64,000 nt of DNA from a virus. A program made the position numbers and the translations under genes. This document shows, piece after piece, positions 2,659 to 63,647 of this stretch. The stretch is taken from positions 33,703 to 97,702 of IMG/VR virus record IMGVR_UViG_3300023179_009191, one strand, 5' to 3'. Under the pieces are notes generated by a model that saw only the letters and a program-made list of their open reading frames with translations, was not told the DNA's origin and ran no database searches. The first letter of the stretch is position 1. The number at the start of each line of letters is the position of its first letter.

Positions 2659-2937
2659 GTGAGTAAAGATAAACAATTAGAAAGTGCTTGGAAAGTGAGA
2701 TTTCCTTTTTGGTTTTGGGGTAAACTTCCCTTCAATTTAAGATATGAAATCTTTCTGTTTCACAAGTTGAGAGAATGGAGAGATGGAATGTCCTTCTTTG
2801 AATTGATTATTAATTTAGACAGGTATGACAAATTTGAATATATAAAATTTAAAGATAACCCTACATTTAATTTTCATTTAATCATTTTAAACTTTACAAT
2901 ATTTCAGATAGAAATATACAAAAGAAAAAATGACTAA
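2659..2937 (+). CDS. hypothetical protein
   Basis: ORF, GTG start. Confidence 0.55.
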   Translation: MSKDKQLESAWKVRFPFWFWGKLPFNLRYEIFLFHKLREWRDGMSFFELIINLDRYDKFEYIKFKDNPTFNFHLIILNFTIFQIEIYKRKND

Positions 2938-3190
2938 TAACGAACTTCACAACGAATTGATGCATGTTGTGGTGAGGCTCCCCCAAGATTATGAGCCTTT
3001 TGGAACAGTTAAGAGATGGGAAGATGATAACAAAAATTATCCAGATTGTTCCATGGGGTGTAGGTATTATAAACCTCTGAAAGGAGAGTTGGGCCAAGAT
3101 TGGGGTGTTTGTGTTAACCGCAACAATTACAGGTTTGGATTATTGACTTTTGAACATATGAGCGGGGTTACTTGTTTCGAAAAAGCTTGA
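2930..3190 (+). CDS. Cys-rich DUF3027-like protein
   Basis: C-x3-C-x-YY-x-PL-x-G-x-LG-x-DWGVC-x-N...EH...C pattern. Confidence 0.55.
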   Translation: MTNNELHNELMHVVVRLPQDYEPFGTVKRWEDDNKNYPDCSMGCRYYKPLKGELGQDWGVCVNRNNYRFGLLTFEHMSGVTCFEKA

Positions 3191-3220
3191 CCATATTCTA
3201 AATTCCTACATATTTTAACC

Positions 3221-3406
3221 ATGGATTTAACAACTAATGTACAAAGACTAGTGGAAGAGATCTGCTACATGTCTGAGGGATTTGGAAGTATAGACAGAGC
3301 TATTAGCTTTGCTAAAGATAGACAAATTAATCTTAACTATCATGTTCCCGGTCATATGTGGCCAGACATTGAGCTTGAGTTGGAAGAGCTTATAGCCAAT
3401 CAATAA
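3221..3406 (+). CDS. hypothetical early protein
   Basis: Leaderless after promoter 3187. Confidence 0.65.
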   Translation: MDLTTNVQRLVEEICYMSEGFGSIDRAISFAKDRQINLNYHVPGHMWPDIELELEELIANQ

Positions 3407-3445
3407 AAAGCTTGACTAAATTTCTAGTTCCTTCATAATATAGGC

Positions 3446-3718
3446 ATGATGAAAAAAGATACATTTATAAAAGATTGGGAAGAATGGGCTGATATGACCA
3501 ACAAGCTTCCTTTGGAGATTCGAGTCAATAGCCGCAGGGCAGGGGCTTACAGTATCAAAAAGAGTGGCATGCTACCAGAAGGCTGTGGCATCAGTTCTTC
3601 AGATGTTAATCATGAATTGTTTAGCATCTGGAAAGATTGCGGTAAAGATTTTTCCAGCTATCTTTCAACGTTAGTTGAGCTTTTAAATCAGAGAGAAGAT
3701 AGTGAGGTAATGGCATGA
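3446..3718 (+). CDS. hypothetical early protein
   Basis: Leaderless ATGATG after promoter 3412. Confidence 0.7.
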   Translation: MMKKDTFIKDWEEWADMTNKLPLEIRVNSRRAGAYSIKKSGMLPEGCGISSSDVNHELFSIWKDCGKDFSSYLSTLVELLNQREDSEVMA

Positions 3719-3809
3719 AGCTTTCCGTTAATTTAGTTATTTTTATTCTGGGCATTTTATGCTGGAGTATTATAATTAGTGGAAGTATATTAATAAATTA
3801 TCTACTCAA

Positions 3810-4004
3810 ATGAATCATACTGAATCAAATAATTTTACAGAAGAACATCTTGGCAAGAGAGTAAAATTCTATCTGGATGATGGTTCGCTTTTTACTGGCA
3901 TTATTACTAGTTTTCCCAATGAAGAGCATGTGTCTGTTCTGGTTGATCATGCCTGGTCAAATTGGAATTGGTATGTGAGGAATGAAGCTGTCTTGCTTGT
4001 ATGA
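3810..4004 (+). CDS. hypothetical protein, possible SH3/Sm-like fold
   Basis: LGKRVKF...FTGIIT pattern. Confidence 0.5.
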   Translation: MNHTESNNFTEEHLGKRVKFYLDDGSLFTGIITSFPNEEHVSVLVDHAWSNWNWYVRNEAVLLV

Positions 4005-19778: not shown

Positions 19779-20216
19779 ATGGAAAAAACCATAGTAACTT
19801 GGCGCAAGGTAATGTCACTGTGCAGCAACATTGTTGCTCAATTGAAGGACAAATATCCCAATGTTGTTGATTATGACATTGTTGGATTGAGCAGAGGTGG
19901 GCTTGTGCCTGGTGTTATTATCAGCAACATGCTCAACGTGCGGCAAATGCATGCCCTGGGCATGAGATCTTATGCAGATCAAGAGAAAACTGAAACACAT
20001 GTGTATCAAGTTCCAGACATAGCATCCATGAGAAAAATACTTCTCATTGATGACATATCAGACACAGGTGAAAGTTTCAAGCAAACCCATGAAATGCTTG
20101 TGAACAAAGAAGTCATAACAGTGTCTTTGTTTTTAAAAGAAAAAACTAAATTTGTTCCCAATGTTTATGGGAAAAAAGTAAAACATGACCAATGGGTTGT
20201 ATTTCCTTGGGAATAA
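19779..20216 (+). CDS. type I phosphoribosyltransferase (xanthine/guanine PRT-like)
   Basis: GLSRGGLVP, PRPP loop LLIDDISDTG, C-terminal WVVFPWE. Confidence 0.9.
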   Translation: MEKTIVTWRKVMSLCSNIVAQLKDKYPNVVDYDIVGLSRGGLVPGVIISNMLNVRQMHALGMRSYADQEKTETHVYQVPDIASMRKILLIDDISDTGESFKQTHEMLVNKEVITVSLFLKEKTKFVPNVYGKKVKHDQWVVFPWE

Positions 20217-24131: not shown

Positions 24132-26402
24132 ATGGCTATGAGTTCTGGAACTACTGTGAGAAAGAGAGATGGAGAAGTTGAAAAATTTAATATTGAGAAA
24201 ATTAATAAGGTTATTAGTTGGGCTACCGACAACATTTCTGGTGTTAGTTTGTCAGACATTGAAATTAATGCCAATCTGAACATTGTTGACAATATTAGCA
24301 CCCGCGAGATACATCAAGTGCTAATTGAATCTGCTGCAAATTTAATTTCCTTGGAGACGCCCAATTATCAATATGTTGCTGCTCGGTTACAAAATTATCA
24401 GCTCAGAAAAGATGTGTGGGGTGGCAAGCATGCGCCCAGACTTCTGGATGTAGTTAATACTGGCATTAAAAATAAAATTTATGATCCAATAATTTTGCAA
24501 AAATACACAGCTAATGAAATTAATAAAATTGGAGAATTTATTGATCATGATAGGGATTTTATTTTTACATATGCAGGCATCAAGCAATTGTGTGACAAAT
24601 ATTTGATTAAAAACAGAGTGACTGATGTGATTTATGAAACGCCGCAATTTGCTTATATTCTCATTGCTGCATATGGTTTTATAAACTACCCTAAGGAAAC
24701 GCGCCTGGAGTATGTGAGAAGATTTTACAATGCTATTTCTAAGCATAAAATTAATTTGCCTACCCCGGTTATGGCCGGTCTTAGAACTAATTCCAAAAGC
24801 TATGCAAGTTGTTGTTTGATTGGTGTAGATGACAATAAGGAGTCTATTACTGCATCCAGTACAGCTATTTCCATTGCTACTGCCAGTCGGTGTGGCATAG
24901 GCATTGATGTTTCCAGGATAAGAGCTATTGGGGCTCCAGTGAACAATGGTGAAGTGGTGCACACTGGTGTCATACCGTTCTTAAAAATATTTGAAGCATC
25001 AGTTAAAGCATGGCAGCAAAATGGTTTACGCGGAGGTAGCGCTACCACCAATGTCATGTGGTGGCATTATGAGATAGAAGATATTGTTGTTTTAAAGAAT
25101 AATGCTGGGACAGATGATAACAGGGTGCGTAAATTAGATTATACTGTAGGCATGTCCAAGCTTTTTTATGACAGGGTTTTAAAGAATGAAGAGGTCACAT
25201 TGTTCTCCCCTCATGAGGTTCCTGAGCTTTGGGATGCTTGGGGCACATCAAAGTTTGATAAAACATACAAAGAATTAGAAGAAAATAAAAAAATAAAGTT
25301 TAAAAGGAAAGTTTCAGCTCGCAAGCTCTTTGGTCTCATAGTAAAAGAAAGAGTTGAAACTGGTAGGATCTATATTCTCAATGTTGATAATGCCAATGAA
25401 CATGGCGCATGGCTAGACAAGGTAACCATGAGTAATTTGTGTACTGAGGTCATTCACCCCACTGTTCCTCTCAAAGATTTTCATGATACAGATGCTGAGA
25501 TAGGCATGTGCATTCTATCTGCAATAAACATGCTAGAAATTAAAGATTGGAAAGACTTGGAAAAAACTTCAGACTTGGCAGTAAGATTCTTGGAAGAAAT
25601 AATTGATATACAAACATATTTTAACAAAGCTGCAGAAAATTTTGCCAAGAAGAGAAGAAGTTTGGGCATTGGTATTACTAACTTAGCAGCATATTTTGCT
25701 AAGAATGAAGTTACATATGGTTCCAGACATTCTCTTGTTTTACTGGATGAATGGATGGAGCATTTTCAATATTATCTGCTCAAGTCTAGCATGGCATTAG
25801 CCAGGGAAAGAGGAAGGTGTGAAAAATTTGAAAGAACCAAGTATGCCAAGGGAATTTTGCCAGTGGATAGTTACAAGAGCAAGGTGGATGATATAGTTAA
25901 AAGAAAGTTTGCTTTAAATTGGAATGAATTGAGAGAAGAAATTAAGATGCATGGGCTCAGACACTCCACTCTTTCCAGCTGCATGCCTTGTGAATCTAGC
26001 TCTGTTGTTCAATGCTCCACCAATGGTGTTGAGCCTGTCAGATCTTTAATTACATTTAAAACATCCAAAATGGGCAAATTGCCTGTGTTGGTTCCCGGCA
26101 TTGGGAAATATGAAGACAAGTATGAGTTAGCATATAATTTTAAAGATAATATAGGCATTTTGAATGTTAATGCAGTAATTCAAAAGTATTTAGACATGGC
26201 CATATCTACTAATGTTTATTATAATTACAGTCACTATGAGAATCATATTCTGCCCGATAGTAAAGTAATGAAGGAATTGCTGTATGCATACAGCATGGGT
26301 CTTATAAGTTTATACTATAATAATACTGATGATGGCGACAAAGAGCAAGTTGTTGATGCTGCAAAAGAAGTAGATTGCTCCAGTGGAGCTTGCAAATTAT
26401 AA
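24132..26402 (+). CDS. nrdA: class Ia ribonucleotide reductase alpha subunit with ATP cone
   Basis: VRKRDG ATP cone, ASCCL, SNLCTE, C-terminal CSSGAC. Confidence 0.97.
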   Translation: MAMSSGTTVRKRDGEVEKFNIEKINKVISWATDNISGVSLSDIEINANLNIVDNISTREIHQVLIESAANLISLETPNYQYVAARLQNYQLRKDVWGGKHAPRLLDVVNTGIKNKIYDPIILQKYTANEINKIGEFIDHDRDFIFTYAGIKQLCDKYLIKNRVTDVIYETPQFAYILIAAYGFINYPKETRLEYVRRFYNAISKHKINLPTPVMAGLRTNSKSYASCCLIGVDDNKESITASSTAISIATASRCGIGIDVSRIRAIGAPVNNGEVVHTGVIPFLKIFEASVKAWQQNGLRGGSATTNVMWWHYEIEDIVVLKNNAGTDDNRVRKLDYTVGMSKLFYDRVLKNEEVTLFSPHEVPELWDAWGTSKFDKTYKELEENKKIKFKRKVSARKLFGLIVKERVETGRIYILNVDNANEHGAWLDKVTMSNLCTEVIHPTVPLKDFHDTDAEIGMCILSAINMLEIKDWKDLEKTSDLAVRFLEEIIDIQTYFNKAAENFAKKRRSLGIGITNLAAYFAKNEVTYGSRHSLVLLDEWMEHFQYYLLKSSMALARERGRCEKFERTKYAKGILPVDSYKSKVDDIVKRKFALNWNELREEIKMHGLRHSTLSSCMPCESSSVVQCSTNGVEPVRSLITFKTSKMGKLPVLVPGIGKYEDKYELAYNFKDNIGILNVNAVIQKYLDMAISTNVYYNYSHYENHILPDSKVMKELLYAYSMGLISLYYNNTDDGDKEQVVDAAKEVDCSSGACKL

Positions 26403-26419
26403 ATATATAATTGTACTCC

Positions 26420-27484
26420 ATGAAGTCAGTTCTTAATATTAAAAACATAGACTATACCAAACAGCCTCTGTTTTTTGGGGAAGATTTAAATCTGCAAAGA
26501 TATGATCGTTTTAAATATCCCATATTTTTTGAGTTGTTCAAAAAGCAAGAAGAATTTTTTTGGTGGCCACATGAAATAAGCTTACAAAAAGACCGCAATG
26601 ACTACAAAGAGCTCAAGGGTTCAGAAAGGTTTGTTTTTGATAATAATCTCAAGTTTCAAACACTGGGTGATAGCATGCTGTCCAGATCCATTCATTCATT
26701 AAAAGATTATGTATCTAATCCAGAATTAGAAATTTGCATGAATACCTGGCAGCGCTTTGAAGGTATTCATAGCTACAGTTATTCATATTTGCTTAACAAC
26801 GTGCATCCTGATGCATCATCATTTTTCGATAGCATCATGGAAGACAAGGAAATAGTATCCAGGGCAGAATTAATACGTAATAATTTTGATAAAATTTTAG
26901 GTGATGATGAAAAGAAAGATTTAAAACAAAAAGTTTTTGATTGTATTCTATCTGTTAATGTTATGGAAGGATTGGTTTTTTATGTTAGCTTTGCTTGTAG
27001 TTTTTATTTTGGCTACAGAGGCATCATGGAAGGCAATGCTAAGATCATTAAATTTATTCAGAGAGATGAATCACAGCACTTTGCTACTACACAAAATTTA
27101 ATTAAAATTTTAAGAGAAGAGGATAAGGAAGGATTTACTAGCATAGTAAAAAAGAGTGAAGATAAGATTTATGCATTTTATGAACAAGCAGCTAAAAATG
27201 AAATTGAATGGTCTGAGTATTTGTTTAGTAAAGGCTCTTTGCTTGGATTGAATGCTGAAGTATTGGGAGGGTATGCCAAATGGCTGTGTGATGCAAGGTT
27301 GCGTTCCCTGGGGTACAAGAAGATTTTTAATCAAAAAAACAATCCCATAGCAGGGTGGTTGGATAGCTATCTAGATAGTAGCAAGGTTCAAGTTGCTCCA
27401 CAGGAAACAGAAATTTCTGCTTATAAGATTGGTGCACGTGACACATCAGTTTCTGATGATGACTTTAATGACATAGAATTGTGA
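26420..27484 (+). CDS. nrdB: ribonucleotide reductase beta subunit
   Basis: FFWWPHE, EGIHSYSY, EGLVFYVSF, RDESQH, VAPQETE. Confidence 0.97.
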   Translation: MKSVLNIKNIDYTKQPLFFGEDLNLQRYDRFKYPIFFELFKKQEEFFWWPHEISLQKDRNDYKELKGSERFVFDNNLKFQTLGDSMLSRSIHSLKDYVSNPELEICMNTWQRFEGIHSYSYSYLLNNVHPDASSFFDSIMEDKEIVSRAELIRNNFDKILGDDEKKDLKQKVFDCILSVNVMEGLVFYVSFACSFYFGYRGIMEGNAKIIKFIQRDESQHFATTQNLIKILREEDKEGFTSIVKKSEDKIYAFYEQAAKNEIEWSEYLFSKGSLLGLNAEVLGGYAKWLCDARLRSLGYKKIFNQKNNPIAGWLDSYLDSSKVQVAPQETEISAYKIGARDTSVSDDDFNDIEL

Positions 27485-28001: not shown

Positions 28002-30581
28002 TTATTTCTTTGAATTGGCTATAGGACCATTCTGAATGGGTACACCATCTTGAAGAGATTGGGCTGCTTGTCTTACTTCTGCATTTGTATTTTTAAGAGT
28101 AAGCGGTAGATTTTTAAATGTATGACTATGTTTAGAAATTAAGATACTATCTTCATCTCTGCCTGTGCCATACACAACAATGGGCATATTGGCTGCATTA
28201 ATACCACCCGAGCCTAAATCTGAACCTTGCACAGGTAGAGGAGTTTGTGCATAAACAGTAACTGTATCATTATTACTATCGGTAAATGTACCTATGACAG
28301 TACCTTGTGGTACATAACCAATGATGCCACTACCTGCTGCACCACCAAGCAAAGCAGATTTAGCTACACCATATCCAATTATTTTACCATTGCCGTTTGT
28401 AGGATCGGTTACTGCAGCACCATAGCATATGGTTTCATTAGTCTCTTGAATTTCTGCAGGTGCTGTTACATGTTGAACAAACAATTCTCCTTCATAATAG
28501 CCACCACCTAAAACAATTGTATTCTTACTAACACCCAGAGTACTGTCTATCAATACTTGTTTTTTGTTTCTTTGTCTGATGCTTATGATATCGCCCACTA
28601 TGGATACTCTCTTGCCACCATCAATATTAATTTCATTTTCAGAGCCAATATTTACTTGCTCTCCTGCTACATTAGTAATAGTACCAGAAATATTAACTGG
28701 CCCATAAGATTTCATGTTTATTCCACCTGCCCCTACAAGAACATTGAACCTGTTGCATACACTTAGAGTATAATTTCCACCTGGTAAGTCAGTAACATTA
28801 ACATATTCATGCAACGGGGAGGGTTTTCTGTTTACGAAAGTACCATAATCAGCTATTCTTATTTCATTTGGATTCATTTTGCCTTTGGCATCTATTCGAA
28901 TGGATCCAAAATCATTCATTACTGTACCAATGGTTTCTATTTTATGTTTTGAAATTTCTATTATTTCGCTACCACCAAGGCCTAATTTTTTTTCAATTTC
29001 AGATAAACTATTAATTTTTTCAGTAAAAAATTTGTTTATTAAAGCTTGTTTTGTAGAAGGTGTCCATTGGCCTTCAAAAGATGAAGGAGAAATTCCAGTG
29101 CCTCCACATGCAGGGCAGGGTTTATTGCCTAGAAATGTTGCAGGTGTTGAAGGAAATGTGGTACCATCAACAGCGCCGCCAAGCAATGTTACTGGCAAGC
29201 CATAACTAAAAGTTCCTGCTACCCCTGGATATAATACTGATTTGAAAATAACATTATTATAAATTGTATTTCCATATGTATAATTGCCTGTGCTGTCACT
29301 ATAAGAGGGTAGAACAATATTTTCAAAAGCAGGATTGTAGCTTATGTTGTATGTGAAATAGCTATTTTTGCTTTTTGTACAAACAGGGCATGGGGCAGCT
29401 GCCCCCATTTTCATTTGCTTTGAAGATGAAAATTTTAGTAATTTGTTTGAAAATTTATTTGCTCTTTGAATATCAAACATTTGCTTAACATCAGCTAGCT
29501 CAGAAACAATCTCCTTCCATTTATTAGCAATTTCAGAATTGATTTTACCAATTTTTTTATAAAAGTTTCCTGCTGTGTTTAAATCATAATCTCTTTCTGT
29601 ATATTCATTTCTGTCTCCTTTTATGGTTAAGAATGAATCTTCAAGTACTAATTTTTGGTCATTTTTTGTGGCCAGCTCTATATTTGTAAAATTATTAAAT
29701 TCTTTGAAAGAGCCTGAATAATGAGTAAATTTTAAAGCCTCTTTATTGTCAGTATTTACAAATGCTAAGGTTCCACCTTTTTGATTGATTACAAATTTAT
29801 TTCTGTAAGTTTCGGTACTTAGTGTGGGGTCGTTGTTTACTTTGTTTTCAAATTCTCCAGGGTAATCAATACCAGCATCCGCTCTTATGTTTTCATTATT
29901 AATATCTGTTGCAGATCCTGCAGAATATATGCTATTCCAATCCTCTGCTCCAAAAGATGAAGCAAAGTATACTGGCTTCATTGCATCGCCTGCTGCAAAG
30001 AAAATCCACAAGTGCGAGCCTACACAGGGTATAGAGAAAGAACCTTTGGCACTATTGCTGTATACTTCCGGTACATAGTTGTAACTTAATTTGTTTGCAT
30101 TATTTACGTTTGTTTCTCTTGGGTCATTGAATGCATCTTTTAATTTAAAAAAATCTAAATCAAATAAATTTCCAGGTTTTTCTCCAATATTATCATAATT
30201 CTGGGAGTATGGTGTAATGTTGCTTGCATTTACTTCATTATTGTCCAGGTTGGTAGCAAATGTAGGGTTTTTATTGGAGTCACTTATGCTACCAACTTTA
30301 TTTGAAGCAAAAAATCTGCCACTTGTATTTTCACCAACTAATGGTGAAGCACATTCTGCCCAAGGCAATATTTTTTTTAAATCTTCAACAATGCTTGTCA
30401 AATCAGAATAGGTATTAGCGCCTACAAATTTAAATTTTTTGTCACGCTTTATTTCATTCCATCCCTTGTAAACAGTAGGTGAAATGTGAGGTACAAAAAC
30501 CTTTACTCTGCCTCTTTTGAGCGGATCATTGTTTTGCACTACTATGCCCAAATAATTACCATAGTAAAGTGGTGCTTTCAT
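28002..30581 (-). CDS. gp5/VgrG-like baseplate hub-spike protein
   Basis: N-terminal OB-fold YLGIVVQNNDPLKRGRVKV, FSIPCVGSHLWIFF..GD..P.YF; HSHTF near C-terminus. Confidence 0.8.
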   Translation of the reverse strand: MKAPLYYGNYLGIVVQNNDPLKRGRVKVFVPHISPTVYKGWNEIKRDKKFKFVGANTYSDLTSIVEDLKKILPWAECASPLVGENTSGRFFASNKVGSISDSNKNPTFATNLDNNEVNASNITPYSQNYDNIGEKPGNLFDLDFFKLKDAFNDPRETNVNNANKLSYNYVPEVYSNSAKGSFSIPCVGSHLWIFFAAGDAMKPVYFASSFGAEDWNSIYSAGSATDINNENIRADAGIDYPGEFENKVNNDPTLSTETYRNKFVINQKGGTLAFVNTDNKEALKFTHYSGSFKEFNNFTNIELATKNDQKLVLEDSFLTIKGDRNEYTERDYDLNTAGNFYKKIGKINSEIANKWKEIVSELADVKQMFDIQRANKFSNKLLKFSSSKQMKMGAAAPCPVCTKSKNSYFTYNISYNPAFENIVLPSYSDSTGNYTYGNTIYNNVIFKSVLYPGVAGTFSYGLPVTLLGGAVDGTTFPSTPATFLGNKPCPACGGTGISPSSFEGQWTPSTKQALINKFFTEKINSLSEIEKKLGLGGSEIIEISKHKIETIGTVMNDFGSIRIDAKGKMNPNEIRIADYGTFVNRKPSPLHEYVNVTDLPGGNYTLSVCNRFNVLVGAGGINMKSYGPVNISGTITNVAGEQVNIGSENEINIDGGKRVSIVGDIISIRQRNKKQVLIDSTLGVSKNTIVLGGGYYEGELFVQHVTAPAEIQETNETICYGAAVTDPTNGNGKIIGYGVAKSALLGGAAGSGIIGYVPQGTVIGTFTDSNNDTVTVYAQTPLPVQGSDLGSGGINAANMPIVVYGTGRDEDSILISKHSHTFKNLPLTLKNTNAEVRQAAQSLQDGVPIQNGPIANSKK

Positions 30582-30617
30582 GTTGAATATATTAGTATTT
30601 ACTGTTATAATAATAGG

Positions 30618-31430
30618 ATGCTAATGAAAGTATCTCATGAGTCTCCTGTATCTATTCTAGAATTATCAAGAAATTATAATGATTTTGATTACTGTTTAGT
30701 ACATCTATTGGATCAATATCCGGAATATAAAAATTATTACAAATCAGCTCGAGCTACATATGATAGAGAAGTTTTACTGGACAACTCTATTTTTGAACTT
30801 GGAAAATCATTTGATCCCAGAAGATTTTATGAGTCTGCTCTGGATATACAACCCAATATGTTTATTGTTCCTGATGCCTTAGAGGATTATACAGAAACGG
30901 TGGATAGCTTTAAACGGTTTACAGATAAAAAATATGATCTAAAGCATACTTTTCTTACTAAGGCAATCGGTGCTGTGCAGGGTAAAAATTGGCAACAGCT
31001 AACAGAATGTTACAAGTTTATGTCTGATCAAGCAGATATGATTGCAATTAGTTTTGATTTTAGTTACTATAATATAACTGGTCAAGGATGGCATCATCTA
31101 GAGCGCTGGTGCTCTGGCCGCCAACGCTTCATCATGGACTTAGTAAATAGTGGCATATGGAGGTGGGACAAGCCTCATCACTTACTAGGCTGCTCGCTAG
31201 CAAAAGAGTTTAGATTCTATGTCGATAGAAATATTTACAATATTGTGTCTTGTGATACTAGTAATCCAATTGTTGCTGCTATTCATGGATTAAAATATGA
31301 TGCGGATTATGGTCTACAGAGCAAACCCACAACTAAGCTTGCAGATCTCATAACACACGAATTTACGCATGATCAGTTTGATCTTGTAACCTATAATACG
31401 AATATGTTTAAGAAGATTATTAGAAGATAA
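30618..31430 (+). CDS. TGT-fold DpdA-like 7-deazaguanine transglycosylase (DpdA3-like)
   Basis: LLDNSIFE, IVPD, AVQG, HHLLG, SCDTSNP motifs; context with QueF; leaderless promoter TTGAAT-N17-TATAAT. Confidence 0.65.
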   Translation: MLMKVSHESPVSILELSRNYNDFDYCLVHLLDQYPEYKNYYKSARATYDREVLLDNSIFELGKSFDPRRFYESALDIQPNMFIVPDALEDYTETVDSFKRFTDKKYDLKHTFLTKAIGAVQGKNWQQLTECYKFMSDQADMIAISFDFSYYNITGQGWHHLERWCSGRQRFIMDLVNSGIWRWDKPHHLLGCSLAKEFRFYVDRNIYNIVSCDTSNPIVAAIHGLKYDADYGLQSKPTTKLADLITHEFTHDQFDLVTYNTNMFKKIIRR

Positions 31431-31441
31431 AAGGAGTTATA

Positions 31442-32026
31442 ATGGCAGCTGCAAAAAATAGAGACTGGCTTTGCTTCTTTAGTAGAAGTGGCTCTGAAAT
31501 TAATAACCTTAGTAAAACATTAGAAATATACCCTGACGCTATTGTTACTAATAGACAAAATCTGGAAGGGGTAAATACAGATTTATTGTCAGTAAATACT
31601 TTCCGGGAGCACAAATTAAACAGCGCTATATGGTATACATTACCAACTAAACCCACAGTAACAGATTACGAGCAAATATTAAGTAGATTTGATAACCCAG
31701 TAATTACATTACACGGATATCTTCGTATTATTCCAAAAGAAATTTGTGAAAAATATGAAATTTATAATCTGCATCCTGGTCTCATAGACAAATATCCGGA
31801 ACTCAAGGGGTTCAATCCTCAAGAAAGAGCATTTAAGGGTGGTTATGATTTAGCTGGGTGCGTTATTCATAAGGTTATTCCTGAAGTAGATGCAGGTGAA
31901 TTAATCATGGGTCAAGGTGTATCTATTAAAAATAAAACTCTTGAGGAAGTGTATGCAGCTTTGCATATTTGTGCTTCTGATCTATGGAAAAGCTTCTTTA
32001 CAGCATATAATATATTGGAACGTTAA
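31442..32026 (+). CDS. PurN-like formyltransferase (putative preQ1 formyltransferase, DpdN-like)
   Basis: FSRSGS, LHGYLRII, NLHPGL...G, GCVIHKV...VDAG. Confidence 0.85.
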   Translation: MAAAKNRDWLCFFSRSGSEINNLSKTLEIYPDAIVTNRQNLEGVNTDLLSVNTFREHKLNSAIWYTLPTKPTVTDYEQILSRFDNPVITLHGYLRIIPKEICEKYEIYNLHPGLIDKYPELKGFNPQERAFKGGYDLAGCVIHKVIPEVDAGELIMGQGVSIKNKTLEEVYAALHICASDLWKSFFTAYNILER

Positions 32027-32027
32027 T

Positions 32028-32999
32028 ATGGATATTTCTTTGCATTATGAGAATGTATTTCTCAAGCCTAATTTTAATTCTGTTAAAACCCGAGCTGACA
32101 TTGATACTAATGTTAAGTTTTTAGGTAAAAACTTCAGACTACCTGTTGTACCTGCTAATATGAAGTGTTGTGTAGATTTTGATATCTGTCAAATTCTTGA
32201 TTCAAAATATTATTTCTATGTTATGCATAGATTTGATCATGACATATTTGCATTTGTTAAAGATGCAAATGCAGTTTTCTTTAATTATATTTCTATTAGT
32301 GTTGGAATTCAACAAAAGGACAGAGCGCTTATTAATAATTTAGCTGCTCATAAATTGAGAGTAGATTTTATTACCATTGATGTTGCTCATGGTCATCATG
32401 CAAGAGTTGCAGATCAAATTAAATTTATTAAAGATAAATTACCAGATACTAAAGTTATTGCTGGAAATGTTGCTACCCGCAATGGTGCAGAATATCTACA
32501 TATGGCAGGTGCAGATGCAGTAAAAGTAGGTATTGGTGGAGGGTATGCATGTACAACAAAAGACAAGACTGGTTTTACATATCCCATGTTTAGCTGTGTC
32601 ATGGAGTGTGCTAATAATGAGGGGTCTAGTTTTGAGATACCCATTGTTGCAGATGGTGGTGTCAGGTGCAATGGTGATATTGCTAAAGCTTTAGTAGCAG
32701 GGGCAAAAATGGTGATGTGTGGCTCCATATTTGCTGCTTGTTCTGATAGCCCTGCTCCTGTTGTAAAGGATACTGCAGGCAGACGTTACAAACAATATTA
32801 TGGTTCAGCAAGTATACACAATAAAATTGATAAGAAAAATATTGAAGGTACCATGAAGCTTATGGAAACAGATTCATTTACTTATGAAGAAAAATTGTTA
32901 GAAATTTCTCAAGATTTGCAAAGTGCAATTAGTTATGCAGGTGGTTGCAATCTGGGTGCATTAAATTTAAATAACGTTGGCTACGGTGTAAGAATATGA
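32028..32999 (+). CDS. guaC: GMP reductase (type 2)
   Basis: LPVVPANM, YFYVMHRF, IDVAHGH, KVGIGGG.AC.T, ADGG, YYGSAS. Confidence 0.9.
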   Translation: MDISLHYENVFLKPNFNSVKTRADIDTNVKFLGKNFRLPVVPANMKCCVDFDICQILDSKYYFYVMHRFDHDIFAFVKDANAVFFNYISISVGIQQKDRALINNLAAHKLRVDFITIDVAHGHHARVADQIKFIKDKLPDTKVIAGNVATRNGAEYLHMAGADAVKVGIGGGYACTTKDKTGFTYPMFSCVMECANNEGSSFEIPIVADGGVRCNGDIAKALVAGAKMVMCGSIFAACSDSPAPVVKDTAGRRYKQYYGSASIHNKIDKKNIEGTMKLMETDSFTYEEKLLEISQDLQSAISYAGGCNLGALNLNNVGYGVRI

Positions 33000-33346
33000 G
33001 CAAAGAAGATTATATAAAATATGTTGCAGAGCATTTTCCCATTACAGTAGAAGAATTTAAAAAGATTCAGCAAGAACAGTTTGAAATTTTCTGTAAGAAG
33101 CAGTTTGATTATGGCCCTGGAAATATATCCTTAGGGTCAGATTTGAACAAAAAAGAAGACAGATTTGCCTCCATATTTGCTATTGTGGTTAGACTTAATG
33201 ACAAAATTCAAAGACTGATTAATCTCGTTTTAAAAAAGCAAACTCTGCAAGGTGCTGCCAATGAACCAGTTATGGATGCTTTTCGGGATGCAGCAGTTTA
33301 TTGCATCATAGCAGAAATAGTTTATAATCATAAATGGGCCAAATGA
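32996..33346 (+). CDS. nucleotide modification-associated domain 1 (DUF1599, MazG-like) protein
   Basis: KKQFDYGPGNI...RLNDKIQRL...NEP..D.F.D...Y. Confidence 0.8.
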   Translation: MSKEDYIKYVAEHFPITVEEFKKIQQEQFEIFCKKQFDYGPGNISLGSDLNKKEDRFASIFAIVVRLNDKIQRLINLVLKKQTLQGAANEPVMDAFRDAAVYCIIAEIVYNHKWAK

Positions 33347-33546
33347 GAACTAAATTGACTAAAAAGCAAATTAAAAAACTTGAAAAACAAGGCAGACTCA
33401 GAGATTCTGTTGAAATTTGGGTTGACCGTCACAACCACAAGCTGGAGCTTCTAAGAACATTTACAAGCCTTACTGCAGCTCTTTGCTCATCACTGGTTTT
33501 ATTAAAATTATTTGGCCTTCTTCATTAGTTCATTTATTATAATTTT

Positions 33547-34137
33547 GTGCACATAACTTTTACAGGGCCGCAGTGTTCAGGCAAAACAACATTGCTAAAA
33601 GCAATGAAAAAAGAACAAGGAATTGTAGACAAATTTTGGTATGTTGATGAAGTAACTAGACTGGTTAAAAGAGAATTTTGTGTGGATATAAATGAATCAG
33701 GTGCAAATGATGTAACTCAATTGTTAATTATAAACAAGGAACTAGAGAATCTCTTTAAATACAAGAAAGAGTATTTGTGGGATCGTTGTCAAGGCATTGT
33801 GCATGATAGATGTCTGTTGGATGGTTTAGTTTTTACTTCATATTTTTATGAAAAGAAATTGGTTTCGCAGCAAGTATGGATGCAGGCTGTTAGCTATTGG
33901 TACAGATTTCATGAAAAATATGACATTATTTTTTATCCTGATCCTCATGATGTGAAGCTAGTAGATGATGGAGAAAGAAGTACAAATAAAGTTTTTAGAG
34001 ACTCAATTATTAAACTTTATGAAGAATACTATTTAAATACATTTCAGGTGAAAAATAAATTAGTTATTTTAAAGGGAACAGTTGAACAACGCATGGAACA
34101 GATTAAAATTAAACTACATGAACAAGGTATTAGATAA
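33547..34137 (+). CDS. P-loop NMP-kinase-like protein (AAA_28)
   Basis: ITFTGPQCSGKTT, HDRCLLD, DDGER. Confidence 0.8.
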   Translation: MHITFTGPQCSGKTTLLKAMKKEQGIVDKFWYVDEVTRLVKREFCVDINESGANDVTQLLIINKELENLFKYKKEYLWDRCQGIVHDRCLLDGLVFTSYFYEKKLVSQQVWMQAVSYWYRFHEKYDIIFYPDPHDVKLVDDGERSTNKVFRDSIIKLYEEYYLNTFQVKNKLVILKGTVEQRMEQIKIKLHEQGIR

Positions 34138-35032
34138 TAGCAACATTTCAAAGCATTTGGGCAAAGTAACAGGATATAAATCCACTTATGATCCTTCACT
34201 CTTGGTCAGAGAACCCAGAATTAACAACAGAAAGCATCTGGACATTACTGATGAAACTGTGCCTTTCACAGGTTACGATATTTGGAATGCTTATGAAGTA
34301 TCTTGTTTAACTGCAGACGGTATGCCTATTGCTGCCATTGCTAAAATTGTTTACCCTTGCAAAAATAAATATATTGTTGAATCCAAATCTATTAAGCTGT
34401 ATATGAATTCTTTCAACATGCAGGTCTTCAAGGGATCTGTGCCATGCGTTGTAAATGAATTGCAGAATACTATTGCCAGAGATTTATCTAATTTGCTTGA
34501 AACAGAGGTTAAAGTTCATGTAAGATTGGCAAAAGCTGTTTCAGATGATCTTTTTTATCCTCCAGTATTTAGCAATAAATCTTTTCCTACATTGGAGCAT
34601 AATATTGATATTTCTATGATCCAATCAAGATCTTATACTGAAGACCCATCTATTTTATCTGCCTTTGAAAGCACAGCTTCTACAGTGCAAAGATTTCACT
34701 CTGCTCTGTTAAAAAGTAATTGCCGGGTAACATCACAGCCTGATTGGGGTGATGTATATATTCATTACAAGGGCAAATATGCAATTACTTCAACATCTCT
34801 TCTGCAGTATATTGTTTCATTTAGAGATGAGTGTCATTTTCATGAAGAAATTTGTGAAACCATTTATATGCGTTTGTTTAGGCTATTCTTTCCTGAAGAA
34901 TTAATGGTAAGCTGTTTATATGTTAGAAGGGGCGGCATTGACATTAACCCAATACGTGCCAGTAACTATAGCTTGTTAGATGAAGTACTTATTGACGAGA
35001 CAAAGTATTTTACGAAAACAGTAAGACAGTAA
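34118..35032 (+). CDS. queF: NADPH-dependent preQ0 reductase (two-domain type)
   Basis: ESKSIKLYMNSF, LKSNCRVTSQPDWG, HFHEEICE, RRGGIDINP. Confidence 0.93.
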   Translation: MNKVLDNSNISKHLGKVTGYKSTYDPSLLVREPRINNRKHLDITDETVPFTGYDIWNAYEVSCLTADGMPIAAIAKIVYPCKNKYIVESKSIKLYMNSFNMQVFKGSVPCVVNELQNTIARDLSNLLETEVKVHVRLAKAVSDDLFYPPVFSNKSFPTLEHNIDISMIQSRSYTEDPSILSAFESTASTVQRFHSALLKSNCRVTSQPDWGDVYIHYKGKYAITSTSLLQYIVSFRDECHFHEEICETIYMRLFRLFFPEELMVSCLYVRRGGIDINPIRASNYSLLDEVLIDETKYFTKTVRQ

Positions 35033-35698: not shown

Positions 35699-37195
35699 TT
35701 AGAAGTAAACAGATGACTGACCGGGTAGGAACGCTGTTCCAAGACCCTGCAGGATGATGACGTGATAGTAGAGATTAGCACCAAAGATGTTATCAACAAC
35801 ACCGTAGCGGGTCAATAGACCAACACGGGGGCTGAAATCATTGGGGCCAATTGTTCTCTGTACCATGACAGGAATGTAGGGGCAATAGATAATACCAGTG
35901 TCATAGAATTCTGGTCCCTTGTAACCCAAGAGAGCATATTCAAGACGTGTGGTACGATACTGAGAGGCACCATATGTACCAGTGCCACTATAATTGCCAC
36001 CCTGACCGAGCTCAAACTGAGCTTCGGTGCGTGTGTCACGGTAAACATTGAACCTACCAGCCAAAGAACCTACCTTAGCAACACCGACGGGCTGTGTATT
36101 GACATTACCCTGTACTGGTACCCACTGGAATTCAGGGAGCATTTCGAGGATAGCGCAAACGCGTGGGGTTGCAACAATGAAGTTAGCAGAACCACGGCGG
36201 TTACGAACTGCAATACGATTAGCTTCGACGATGAGCCTCTGGTAGAAGTCACGATTACGTTCAACGAGCCAACGGCCGTCGGCTGAAGCAGGGGACCAAA
36301 CAGAGAAACCGCGGCCAAAGCCACCGTTTAGAGCTGTCTGAATCATTCTGATGATCATTTCACGATCGATTTCGGCCTGTAGCTCATAAGACATAGCGTT
36401 TGTGAGCTCAGTGTCGATATCAATACCGTTCATGTTCTTCAGATCCTGCTCGAGTTCAACTGACCAGCGAGCAGCAAGTCTACGTGTACCGGCTTCGACA
36501 GCGGTCTTCTCAAAGCTGACTACGATCTGAGGAATCTTGCTTGTTAGCTCGAAGTTAGCGAGCAACTGAGCAACACCCTTATCCTGATCAACCATTGGGA
36601 AGTATGTACCGGCTGTGTCACCAGAGAGCTGGACAGATGAAGTACCAGTGAATCTGGTGTCCAGATACTGATAACCGAGTTCATCGCCATCTGACTGAAG
36701 CTGAGGATTATTGAGATTGGATGTAGCAGAGGCATCCAGGTTGCCAGTTGTGTTGTAACCTAGTGCATCGCTCTCATACTTGTAGCGGAGGGCGAAGGCT
36801 AGACCAACTGGGCCTGACATGGGCTGTACACCAACGATCTCGTTAGTAATCAACTCAGGGAAGGTACGTCTGATCATCGGAATGAGGATCTTAGGAAGAC
36901 GGTAATCACCAGGGGCATAAGCACTATCATTCTGTGAAGGGAACTGATTGCCATAAGCACCGTCATTAACGGAGCCATTGGAAAATACAGAACCTGTTCC
37001 ACCGGACTGATTGGAAGCTTCAAAACACCACTTCTCTTGGTTTTCCAAGAGGATGGCAGTGTTTAGGCGTGTGTGATCGTCTTCGATTGCCTTGACATTG
37101 GCAGAAGTGTAATCCAGAACTGGACCCCACTTTTCAACCAATAGCTTGGCGCGATCTTCACTGATGTAAGACTGTGAAGGACGAATATTTGCCAT
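35699..37195 (-). CDS. T4-like major capsid protein gp23
   Basis: KWGPVLD, TAILLENQE, GVQPMSGPVGLAFALR, ELEQDLK..GID, YCPYIP, F.PRVGLLTRYG. Confidence 0.97.
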   Translation of the reverse strand: MANIRPSQSYISEDRAKLLVEKWGPVLDYTSANVKAIEDDHTRLNTAILLENQEKWCFEASNQSGGTGSVFSNGSVNDGAYGNQFPSQNDSAYAPGDYRLPKILIPMIRRTFPELITNEIVGVQPMSGPVGLAFALRYKYESDALGYNTTGNLDASATSNLNNPQLQSDGDELGYQYLDTRFTGTSSVQLSGDTAGTYFPMVDQDKGVAQLLANFELTSKIPQIVVSFEKTAVEAGTRRLAARWSVELEQDLKNMNGIDIDTELTNAMSYELQAEIDREMIIRMIQTALNGGFGRGFSVWSPASADGRWLVERNRDFYQRLIVEANRIAVRNRRGSANFIVATPRVCAILEMLPEFQWVPVQGNVNTQPVGVAKVGSLAGRFNVYRDTRTEAQFELGQGGNYSGTGTYGASQYRTTRLEYALLGYKGPEFYDTGIIYCPYIPVMVQRTIGPNDFSPRVGLLTRYGVVDNIFGANLYYHVIILQGLGTAFLPGQSSVYF

Positions 37196-61280: not shown

Positions 61281-62012
61281 TTATTTAAGTAAGAACTTTT
61301 TCCTAAGTTTTATTTCTTCTTCTTCTTTTTCTCTTTCTTTCTTCTGAGCAGTCAGAATGGCTTCCATCATATCCAAGTTTTCCTTGGATAGTATACTCTG
61401 TTCTTCACCAATGAGATCTCCTTGCTCATTTAGGTAAAGTTTTATCATTTCTATACGTTCTTCTGGTAAACCAAATATTTCTATTATGGCAGGTGAATCA
61501 TCCTTTGGAAAAAAGGGTGAATTGCCTGTATGATAAGAGCGTTGAATAGCTTTAAAAATATTATCTATTTCCTTATTATAATTTTGGTCAATTTCTCTAC
61601 CCTCTCTTGCTTCAATTTTTACAGGGGCAACTTTAGTAATTGGAAGCAAGAAAACAATGTCCAAATGTCTCATACTTTCACTAACAAGAGGAATACATTT
61701 ATCAATAAACTCCTTGTCGATATCTGTTGCCTGCTTATCAAAACTCCACATGGAATAAACAAGATTATCCAGAGGGCATCTATCAAAAATTACATGATCT
61801 TCTTTGGTAGTATTCTGTAAATCATTAATAAGACAGTTTAACACTTTCCATTGACTGTCTTTTGTTACTTGCTTGTTTAGTGGTAATTTTTCTTTTTTTA
61901 CAATTTCACGGTAAGATTCTTTTGATCTTGTATAGTTTGGCCATTTTTTAAGAAAATCATTAATGAGGGTTGTTTTGCCTTGACACGCAGTACCAGAAAT
62001 TGCTATTCTCAT
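61281..62012 (-). CDS. P-loop NMP-kinase-like protein (AAA_28)
   Basis: IAISGTACQGKTT, FDRCPLD. Confidence 0.8.
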   Translation of the reverse strand: MRIAISGTACQGKTTLINDFLKKWPNYTRSKESYREIVKKEKLPLNKQVTKDSQWKVLNCLINDLQNTTKEDHVIFDRCPLDNLVYSMWSFDKQATDIDKEFIDKCIPLVSESMRHLDIVFLLPITKVAPVKIEAREGREIDQNYNKEIDNIFKAIQRSYHTGNSPFFPKDDSPAIIEIFGLPEERIEMIKLYLNEQGDLIGEEQSILSKENLDMMEAILTAQKKEREKEEEEIKLRKKFLLK

Positions 62013-62109: not shown

Positions 62110-62847
62110 TCAGACTTTCAATGCCTTGTCATAAATGACTAGCTGCAGTCTGGGGCTAAACTGATAGCCATGTTGCTTGCAAAGCTCGGCGACCAGTGGT
62201 GCCATCTCAACATGTTCAGATCGGCTACCACAACAAGGCATGAGCCATACCTTGCTTCTCTTAATATCAAACCGGTTTATATATTTTTCCTCTATTTCAA
62301 TGAGATCTTCTGGCTTAGTAATAACAAATTTAAATCCCGACCCATTGCGAGCATGCCAAGACAATACATCAGGTATGTATCTCTTGTTCTCCGGGTCGCC
62401 ATTGCTGGCTAGCTTGGGTGAAGTTGTGAAGGTAGCGTAATAATCTAGCTGCCAGGAAGGATCAGGCATGATTGTTGCATTAGTCTCAAAATCTATACGG
62501 GGTATGAAGCGGTATTTTTCAGAGAATGCAGCAATAAATTCTAGCAAGTTTTTTTGCTGTATGAGGGGCTCGCCTCCTGTTAATTTGAGCATACTATTTT
62601 TACGTAAATGAGAAACAAATCCTGATTCATCCATGAGCTGAAAAATTTGATCAAATGTAAGTCTGTTCTTTACAGACCAGCTAATAAAACTATCGCATCC
62701 ATGGGGTGAATCCTTGCTAGCAAATCCTTTGCAAGTCAAATTACACATGGATAAGCGCATAAAAACTGAGGGCTTACCCACATGCTCACCTTCACCCTCA
62801 ATAGTATGAAACAGCTTGTCATCTGATAAAAATATAAACTTATCCAT
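62110..62847 (-). CDS. queE: 7-carboxy-7-deazaguanine synthase (radical SAM)
   Basis: F.TIEGEG...G.P.VF.R...CNLTC...CD, LTGGEP, ETN, SPKL, KFV, SPRLQ. Confidence 0.9.
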   Translation of the reverse strand: MDKFIFLSDDKLFHTIEGEGEHVGKPSVFMRLSMCNLTCKGFASKDSPHGCDSFISWSVKNRLTFDQIFQLMDESGFVSHLRKNSMLKLTGGEPLIQQKNLLEFIAAFSEKYRFIPRIDFETNATIMPDPSWQLDYYATFTTSPKLASNGDPENKRYIPDVLSWHARNGSGFKFVITKPEDLIEIEEKYINRFDIKRSKVWLMPCCGSRSEHVEMAPLVAELCKQHGYQFSPRLQLVIYDKALKV

Positions 62848-62894: not shown

Positions 62895-63647
62895 ATGTCA
62901 AAGAAAGATAGGCAGCTTAAAAAGACTGCTAAAATAGATGAAACAAAGTTTTTGAAGTCTGATATATTTCTCAATTTTAAAATAGATCAGAAGTTTCATT
63001 TAAATGAGCATCACAAAGCGTTTGTAGAAAAAGCCATACAAGATGATTCTCTCATATTATTCTGTGATGGTCCAGCAGGCACATCAAAAACATATTTAGC
63101 AACATATGTAGCTCTAACTATGCTAAAAGACAAGAAAGCTGATGAAGTAGTTTACATAAGAAGCATAGTAGAATCAGCTCATAAAAAACTTGGCAGTTTG
63201 CCAGGTGAAGTAGATGAAAAATTTAAACCATGGAGTATACCCTTAATTGAGAAGTGTGATGAATTGGTAGGTAAGCAAATTACAAACATGCTTTTTGATA
63301 GCAATTATTTAAAATGCATACCTGTAAATTTTCTAAGGGGCAGTACTTTTGCTAATAGTGTGGTTATAGTTGACGAAGCACAAAATTTAGAACATAGCGA
63401 ATTAGTAACAATTTTAACAAGATTTGGAAAAAACTGTAAATTGTTTATTATTGGTGACACAAGACAATCTGATATTTTTGATAGGTCAGGCTTTGAAAAA
63501 ATAATGAATGCTTTTGATACTGAGGAGAGTCATAAGCATGGCATAAGAGCATTTAAGTTTACTGAAGAAGATATCACCAGAAGTAAATTGTTAAAATTCA
63601 TAGTGAAAGTAATATCAGGTATTAAAATTACTGCAGTAAAGAAGTAA
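62895..63647 (+). CDS. phoH: PhoH-family ATPase
   Basis: GPAGTSKT, LGSLPG..EK..P, FLRGSTF, DEAQN, TRFG, GD..Q.D. Confidence 0.93.
   Translation: MSKKDRQLKKTAKIDETKFLKSDIFLNFKIDQKFHLNEHHKAFVEKAIQDDSLILFCDGPAGTSKTYLATYVALTMLKDKKADEVVYIRSIVESAHKKLGSLPGEVDEKFKPWSIPLIEKCDELVGKQITNMLFDSNYLKCIPVNFLRGSTFANSVVIVDEAQNLEHSELVTILTRFGKNCKLFIIGDTRQSDIFDRSGFEKIMNAFDTEESHKHGIRAFKFTEEDITRSKLLKFIVKVISGIKITAVKK

Follow-up and report, generated by a model that had tools for sequence, protein, structure and literature searches.

The question raised by this locus is why a gene for guanosine monophosphate (GMP) reductase should lie inside a phage operon for 7-deazaguanine DNA modification, and whether it belongs to a module that excludes guanine. 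The DNA analysed here, called the window, is the last 64 kb (positions 33,703 to 97,702) of a 97.7-kb viral contig, IMG/VR record IMGVR_UViG_3300023179_009191, which CheckV estimates to be 43% complete; it is part of the genome of a large uncultured phage that is distantly related to Flavobacterium phage immuto 2-6A. Between the baseplate-spike and major capsid genes it carries a run of seven open reading frames (ORFs) on the plus strand (30618-35032). The first-pass annotation had described guaC, a DUF1599/Nmad1 gene and a kinase gene between the formyltransferase gene and queF of this run, all of which are indeed present there with abutting or overlapping frames, and had proposed a guanine-exclusion module. 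That proposal is partly supported: it holds for the kinase and hydrolase that accompany the transglycosylase-like protein DpdA3, and not for GuaC as an essential part. The fixed core of the system is DpdA3 with a nucleoside/nucleotide kinase, usually with a protein of deoxynucleoside triphosphate (dNTP)-hydrolase type alongside (here the product of a small ORF, o116). We favour, with a probability of about 0.5, the reading that GuaC and a purine phosphoribosyltransferase (PRTase) are a dispensable guanine sink on a DpdA3-kinase module whose probable substrates are nucleotides.

Judged by homology, the operon is a predicted DpdA3/DpdN/QueF system for replacing guanine by formyl-preQ1, a variant of the immuto-type fdPreQ1 system. 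Its first gene (30618..31430, plus strand) encodes a 271-aa protein of DpdA3 type resembling tRNA-guanine transglycosylases (TGTs), which was assigned through PHROG 19058 and through its identity to the 'DNA guanine transglycosylase' of immuto 2-6A (41%, E = 1e-55) and to gp056 of Campylobacter phage CP220 (44%, 8e-49). Invariant Asp-containing motifs, which we take to be the catalytic Asp motifs of TGTs, are kept in the DpdA3 sequences. The protein had no Pfam match, its profile found no match among PDB sequences, and the DpdA3 of phiST was not reached by tblastn with the window or the CP220 protein; the link to TGTs comes from HHpred results in PMC10516641. A longer GTG frame from 30486 was considered for this gene and is probably spurious, as relatives mostly match from residue ~31-47 and the extra residues often hit stops. 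The second gene (31442..32026, plus strand) encodes a putative formyltransferase of the PurN superfamily (Formyl_trans_N, E = 4.1e-15; 44% identity to the immuto gp204 region), for which we use the name DpdN from PMC10516641. The run ends with the bimodular preQ0 reductase QueF (34118..35032, plus strand; QueF_N 5e-36, QueF 7e-22), which scored 269 bits against a TIGR03138 cut-off of 293 and whose open frame begins at 34082, with an in-frame ATG at 34118. The genes between them are tightly packed: one base separates the DpdN stop (32026) from the GuaC ATG (32028), the stop of GuaC and the start of o116 share the sequence ATGA (32996-32999), and the 3' end of the kinase gene overlaps the start of queF. 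A QueE-like radical SAM enzyme is encoded elsewhere in the window (62110..62847, minus strand; Fer4_12, with QueE models at E = 2e-16, below their curated cut-offs). QueC, FolE and QueD were not found on the 43%-complete contig; since five fuller relatives encode QueC and FolE, this lack is read as incompleteness rather than absence.

GuaC (32028..32999, plus strand; 323 aa from an ATG start) is, as far as sequence can tell, a genuine and apparently intact type-2 GMP reductase of near-canonical form, with a predicted NADPH-dependent conversion of GMP to IMP; the identity first given to it was right. It matched the Pfam domain of inosine monophosphate dehydrogenase (IMPDH) and GMP reductase with E = 4.8e-56, and its best family by far was the NCBIfam GMP reductase PRK05458 (E = 2.2e-96), with 323 bits against a curated equivalog cut-off of 344. 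The solved GMP reductase of Bacillus anthracis (PDB 1YPF/2A1Y) aligned with it over the full length (245 bits, E = 1e-71, residues 6-313 against 15-318 of 1YPF). Both proteins belong to the same length class and lack the CBS subdomain that IMPDH has. Kept in the window protein are the Glu of NIEG (within KKNIEG), the ADGG motif and the catalytic Cys loop, GIGGGYACTTK. The window protein differs from the Bacillus enzyme in being phage-borne and in its score below the equivalog cut-off. Orthologues in the same slot of relatives are 71-87% identical, and across 11 phage GuaC orthologues the Cys-loop and KKNIEG segments contain invariant columns.

The linkage of GuaC was followed in a DpdA3-seeded scan of IMG/VR, which gave 62 loci whose neighbours were mapped by tblastn; loci with at least 4.5 kb downstream of DpdA3 (n = 44) were counted as covered for the kinase, QueF and DpdN. 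Loci with DpdA3 at least 59% identical form what we call the close clade, and those with 51-57% identity the marine clade. The first-pass annotation had asked for a test of guaC-dpdA-dpdN-queF linkage across phages; its QueF and DpdN part was found in 43/44 and 40/44 covered loci, respectively, and its guaC part was patchy, so that the refuting condition named there, a guaC linkage without conservation, applies by half. In the close clade, GuaC lies in the operon at 23 loci, is absent with coverage from 4 and was left unscored at 4; at 7 loci it stands directly after the genes for the alpha and beta subunits of ribonucleotide reductase (RNR), upstream of the spike gene. A GuaC-seeded scan, with search patterns derived from this clade, further placed GuaC near dpd, RNR or QueE genes in more divergent DpdA3 phages (DpdA3 identity down to 45%), so that at least three different slots are occupied among DpdA3 phages. 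In one of these, found at 45-50% DpdA3 identity, the genes run PRTase, RNR-alpha, RNR-beta, GuaC, spike gene, DpdA3, kinase, QueF, and the third lies beside QueE and the second kinase. The in-operon and after-RNR copies share one well-supported clade of the GuaC tree, therefore the gene has moved between slots. The distant DpdA3 phages with PRTase-RNR-alpha-RNR-beta-GuaC or QueE-second kinase-GuaC orders are represented by loci L111, L119, L127, L130, L109, L117, L118 and L120. In the 105-kb record IMGVR_UViG_3300010334_006426 (L016/L118), the two groups of genes are near opposite ends: DpdA3 at a distance of ~2 kb from its end, and GuaC, QueE and the second kinase at ~2-4 kb from theirs.

The kinase shows a different pattern, as it is a constant partner of DpdA3. 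Its gene (33547..34137, plus strand; 196 aa from a GTG start) matched Pfam AAA_28 with E = 2.5e-14 and follows DpdA3 in 44/44 covered loci; 41 of these were counted by script, and 3 were added in which the final base of the DpdA3 match is also the first of the kinase match. In immuto and CP220 a kinase also follows DpdA3. When 50,697 phage records were searched, the operon kinase had homologues only in Campylobacter Firehammervirus phages and the second kinase only in Firehammervirus and Immutovirus, and all but one of the kinase-matched records also has a DpdA3 match. The earlier view that the kinase is wired into the dpd operon was thus confirmed. The AlphaFold model of the protein has a predicted local distance difference test (pLDDT) score of 90; Foldseek aligned it with deoxyadenosine kinase, deoxyguanosine kinase, NadR and thymidylate kinase at E = 6e-07 to 1e-05 (TM ~0.6-0.66), and its profile matched 8puu and 2pbr in the PDB, with nucleoside kinases ranking top. 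GxxxxGKT and DRC are invariant in the family, and a conserved Glu aligns with the Glu of the EPV segment in the 8puu deoxynucleoside kinase, which leaves the substrate undecided. The protein has the deoxynucleoside-kinase/NadR-RNK/thymidylate-kinase fold, and its phosphate acceptor is not readable from its sequence. A paralogue of it, noted in the first-pass annotation as a second kinase next to QueE and present as described, lies at 61281..62012 on the minus strand (AAA_28, 1.5e-14; dNK, 8.8e-06, below cut-off). In CP220 the second kinase paralogue (L067:5407-6410, gp006-gp007) is immediately followed by a gene of the dUTPase family, so that here too a kinase is paired with a dNTP hydrolase.

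The gene product between GuaC and the kinase, o116 (32996..33346, plus strand; 116 aa), is a borderline DUF1599/Nmad1 protein with four helices, assigned through relatives, ESM Atlas clusters and a model. It reached 12.9 bits for DUF1599 (PF07659) against a gathering threshold of 25, and 15/24 orthologues gave sub-threshold matches; homologues at 44-50% identity scored 25.6-29.6 bits, above the threshold, and 29/30 of the best named ESM Atlas clusters were DUF1599. Its AlphaFold model (pLDDT 85) shows four helices, the family has invariant acidic and basic columns, and the protein is possibly an all-alpha nucleoside triphosphate (NTP) pyrophosphatase. It had previously been called a MazG-like DUF1599 protein; DUF1599 stands by way of the relatives, and MazG-like is only a lead, at a Foldseek E of ~1. 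In one subclade of the marine clade, a gene for a PF18909 MazZ-type dATP/dGTP diphosphohydrolase fills the o116 slot (E = 1e-20 to 1e-24), directly upstream of the kinase gene (L042:4226-4636, L044:5399-5770, L049:12202-12588, L043:5222-5593, L063:1468-1818). A conserved ORF of 176-211 aa precedes the PF18909 gene in 3/5 of these loci (L042, L044, L049), and an ORF of ~87 aa is also seen in L042 and L044. Other lineages have other genes of this type near DpdA3: in immuto, a phosphoribosyl-ATP pyrophosphohydrolase (PRA-PH) gene of the MazG superfamily two genes upstream; in CP220, directly upstream, a gene that joins an HD-phosphohydrolase to a P-loop kinase; and a MazG/dUTPase-like gene three genes away in phiST (PMC10516641). 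A dNTP-hydrolase-type gene is a frequent and lineage-dependent partner of DpdA3, not a universal one. The proposed association of nucleotide-pool enzymes with DpdA3 was upheld: they are wired into the operon, and the marine clade has its MazZ-type gene where the window has o116.

A Gpt-like 6-oxopurine PRTase is encoded at 19779..20216 on the plus strand, where the first-pass annotation had noted it (Pribosyltran; PRK09177, 79 bits against a cut-off of 138). It aligns with archaeal purine PRTases and with the xanthine-guanine PRTase of E. coli and keeps the DDISDTG motif. In 6-oxopurine PRTases the aspartate of DTG acts at N7 of the base, and as this residue is kept, guanine fits the enzyme better than a 7-deaza base as substrate. 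The protein thus looks like a true 6-oxopurine enzyme, with its substrate predicted from sequence. Its phage homologues belong to immuto, members of the phiST group, two phages of Brevundimonas and one Synechococcus phage; in the last the gene adjoins a queuosine gene, and in phiST it adjoins a P-loop kinase and RNR. The PRTase matches ON615601.1 71323-71763 and ON529865.1 15308-15754 concern Synechococcus phage BUCT-ZZ01 and Brevundimonas phages StAshley and MaInes, and in BUCT-ZZ01 part of the match falls on a feature that bears the annotation queuosine biosynthesis protein. The class I RNR of the window, large and small subunits, lies at 24132..27484 on the plus strand, and the alternative GuaC slot of relatives comes directly after it.

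The gene company of DpdA3 suggests a base swap on free nucleotides rather than on finished DNA. From the observed gene identities, intactness, synteny and phyletic pattern we infer the following scheme, in which all substrates, the order of steps and the pre-replicative timing are predictions. The dNTP-hydrolase-type protein would lower dGTP and give dGMP, and DpdA3 would swap guanine for preQ1 on the free deoxynucleotide or deoxynucleoside (on DNA, in the published alternative). The two paralogous kinases would restore the diphosphate, host nucleoside diphosphate kinase (Ndk) would make the triphosphate for the polymerase, and DpdN would formylate at some stage. The expelled guanine would be captured as GMP by the PRTase, and GuaC, where present, would turn GMP irreversibly into inosine monophosphate (IMP), which makes a one-way sink. 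Such a sink would stop guanine from competing for re-insertion or from returning via the phage RNR to dGTP, and IMP from GuaC would also feed the A pool of a genome with 65% AT. TGT-family enzymes re-insert guanine, and this provides a rationale for a guanine sink whether the swap is pre- or post-replicative.

Several findings weigh against this reading and set its limits. GuaC is absent from 10/10 covered loci of the marine clade, and on the DpdA3 tree its in-operon state requires at least 4 changes, with repeated loss or relocation in the close clade. No GuaC was found in the complete genomes of immuto 2-6A and CP220, both of which are reported to have 100% of their G replaced (PMC10516641). 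With GuaC absent from these two phages and from the marine clade, it cannot be required for full replacement. GuaC is a frequent, mobile and dispensable companion of the DpdA3 system and not a core part, and the earlier idea of a required, conserved component is not supported in view of its patchy presence in the close clade, its changing slots and these absences. For o116, the top Foldseek rows were the all-alpha NTP pyrophosphatases 2p06, DR2231 and 2a3q, weak at E 0.7-3.6; a wide structural search gave generic helical matches only, which is uninformative for a small helical protein; and its profile had no match among PDB sequences. Profile-profile comparison of o116 with the PF18909 genes was not significant (probability 0.3%), so that homology between the occupants of the slot is not established. 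The window operon ORFs had no PF18909 match, and the complete relative had none either. The operon of the second marine subclade is without a dNTP-hydrolase-type gene, and a search of its record, 61% complete, found no PF18909 and no MazG; searches for both in the complete relative, CP220, phiST and the marine record gave nothing above cut-off. A GMP drain also competes with the supply of GTP to FolE. Furthermore, activity on mononucleotides is not known for any member of the TGT superfamily.

Some of these findings would suit a plainer role for GuaC, possible in our view though doubtful, as a generic purine-balancing gene of an AT-rich large phage that turns surplus GMP via IMP into AMP and has no tie to deazaguanine; the sole reason for its place in the operon would be that phages tend to keep nucleotide-metabolism genes together and to move them about. 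Its patchy presence, its absence from both fully replaced phages and the position of the same lineage after RNR-alpha/beta instead of in the operon all agree with this, as does the G+C content of the window (~0.27-0.45). Many phages without a DpdA3 match also have GuaC, among them Bacillus phage G, Staphylococcus 42E, Cr30 and XacN1, and the GuaC-seeded scan returned ~20 other viral GuaC loci without a dpd gene within 8 kb. Against this role, every GuaC slot in DpdA3 phages adjoins dpd, QueE/kinase or RNR genes, and in the window GuaC lies right next to DpdN and shares bases with o116. DpdA3 phages also account for a marked share of the viral GuaC loci that were retrieved, though the search patterns came from this clade.

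In the sole published view, insertion takes place after replication, on DNA, as proposed for all DpdA families including DpdA3 (PMC10516641). If everything here were post-replicative, DpdA3 would act on finished DNA, the kinase would be an ordinary dTMP/dNMP kinase, as the label thymidylate kinase in public records has it, and o116 would be an unrelated helper of DNA synthesis; the Asp-containing motifs kept by DpdA3, presumably those of TGT catalysis, would fit this. We consider it unlikely all the same. A housekeeping kinase would not be expected after DpdA3 in every lineage and yet be missing from all other phages, and neighbours of dGTP-cleaving type recur. In addition, detection of the ADG nucleoside in CP220-infected cells is cited in PMC10516641.

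The locus can be compared with its closest known counterparts. With the fdPreQ1 system of immuto 2-6A the window shares the order DpdA3, DpdN, kinase, QueF (41%, 44% and 48% identity for DpdA3, DpdN and QueF), and immuto likewise encodes a PRTase and, near DpdA3, an all-alpha NTP-pyrophosphatase gene, its PRA-PH gene; unlike the window it has no GuaC in the genome and no DUF1599-like gene in the operon, and the position between baseplate-spike and major capsid genes is a difference of the window. The dADG system of CP220 (Firehammervirus) is similar in that DpdA3, 44% identical, is followed by a homologous kinase, with the second kinase paralogue elsewhere, and in having a phosphohydrolase directly upstream of DpdA3. 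A point of difference is that this phosphohydrolase has an HD domain and forms one protein with a further P-loop kinase. CP220 differs further in lacking GuaC and in its final base, and neither DpdN nor QueF was detected in its 18.7-kb locus. The Z-genome module of cyanophage S-2L (PurZ, MazZ, DatZ; PMC8342488) follows a similar logic, as it pairs the synthesis of a base with removal of the canonical dNTP, and the MazZ-type PF18909 gene in the o116 slot of the marine DpdA3 clade adds to the likeness. In contrast, PF18909, PurZ and DatZ were all missing from the window and the complete relative, the target is G and not A, and exclusion is here predicted from genes.

The nearest precedent for GuaC and a PRTase beside genes for preQ0 as well as CDG (7-carboxy-7-deazaguanine) is, by analogy, the chemistry of tubercidin and toyocamycin, since a PRTase and a GMP-reductase homologue are established parts of these 7-deazapurine antibiotic pathways (TubE/TubD and ToyH/ToyE; PMC6112128). 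As in the phage, preQ0/CDG genes there are accompanied by a homologue of GMP reductase and by a PRTase of purine type. The pathways differ from the phage in belonging to Streptomyces secondary-metabolite clusters without DpdA, in yielding a free nucleoside and not DNA, and in needing steps of PurA/PurB type, which the phage group is without; no adenylosuccinate synthetase homologue (PurA/PurZ) was found in the contig or four relatives. By direct transfer, the phage PRTase would join 7-deazaguanine to phosphoribosyl pyrophosphate (PRPP), as TubE does with CDG, and GuaC would reductively deaminate that nucleotide, as do TubD and, in toyocamycin, the counterparts ToyH/ToyE (PMC6112128; bioRxiv 2026.04.15.718813), so that DNA would gain a 7-deazahypoxanthine-type base or, via host PurA/PurB, a 7-deazaadenine-type base, a kind of natural DNA base so far undescribed. 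This is very improbable, given that no PurA/PurZ/ToyG homologue was found in the contig or the 100%-complete relative, that the PRTase keeps the aspartate of 6-oxopurine PRTases, that GuaC is optional while DpdN and QueF stay unchanged, and that GuaC itself is a near-canonical type-2 enzyme.

The remaining features concern the surroundings and expression of the operon and its variants in relatives. The plus-strand dpd run is flanked on its left by the baseplate-spike gene (28002-30581) and on its right by the major capsid gene (35699-37195), both on the minus strand. Upstream of DpdA3 a promoter-like site, TTGAAT-17-TATAAT with a TG extension (30583..30611, plus strand; 10/12 matches and an extended -10), stops 6 nt before the ATG; such sites are no more frequent across the region than in shuffles, and it is taken as a lead only. 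A weaker promoter-like site in 33512-33546 stops 6 nt before the kinase GTG, with the same geometry as at DpdA3 (30583-30617), and the run may be transcribed as two units, each with a leader that is very short or missing. A 64-codon ORF with a hydrophobic tail (33334..33528, plus strand) was rejected as a gene and is probably not one, as a homologue was found in 1/62 related loci and it has no family match. Megablast of the operon against the 50,697 phage records gave no match. Divergent from QueE and the second kinase is a PhoH-like ATPase gene (62895-63647), and in CP220, too, a PhoH-like gene is found within a few kb of DpdA3. Two close relatives have a gene for a flavin-dependent halogenase (Trp_halogenase; L011:10810-12393, E = 2e-75, and L016:4008-5585, E = 5e-79) as an insertion that separates DpdA3 from DpdN, joined in L016 by an AsnB-like amidotransferase (2662-3939); this may point to a further undescribed 7-deazaguanine derivative. 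In the divergent locus L041 (1741-3546) the genes ahead of the capsid gene are only DpdA3, the kinase and one like DUF1599, without DpdN and QueF, and this phage probably installs a different deazaguanine.

The literature that we searched contains no paper tying GuaC to phage dpd or deazaguanine systems, in agreement with the first-pass annotation, and the words 'kinase' and 'phosphoribosyl' do not occur in the text of PMC10516641. A base swap made on DNA after replication does not easily explain how 100% of guanine comes to be replaced. In this locus and ~100 relatives, DpdA3 is never without a nucleoside/nucleotide kinase and is often accompanied by a protein of dGTP-cleaving type, and in many lineages it also travels with the guanine-disposal enzymes PRTase and GuaC. 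GuaC is then an optional booster and not the key to guanine exclusion. The gene set could yield enzymes for making 7-deazaguanine dNTPs, and it makes the question of whether these phages install their modified base before or after replication testable by enzyme assays.

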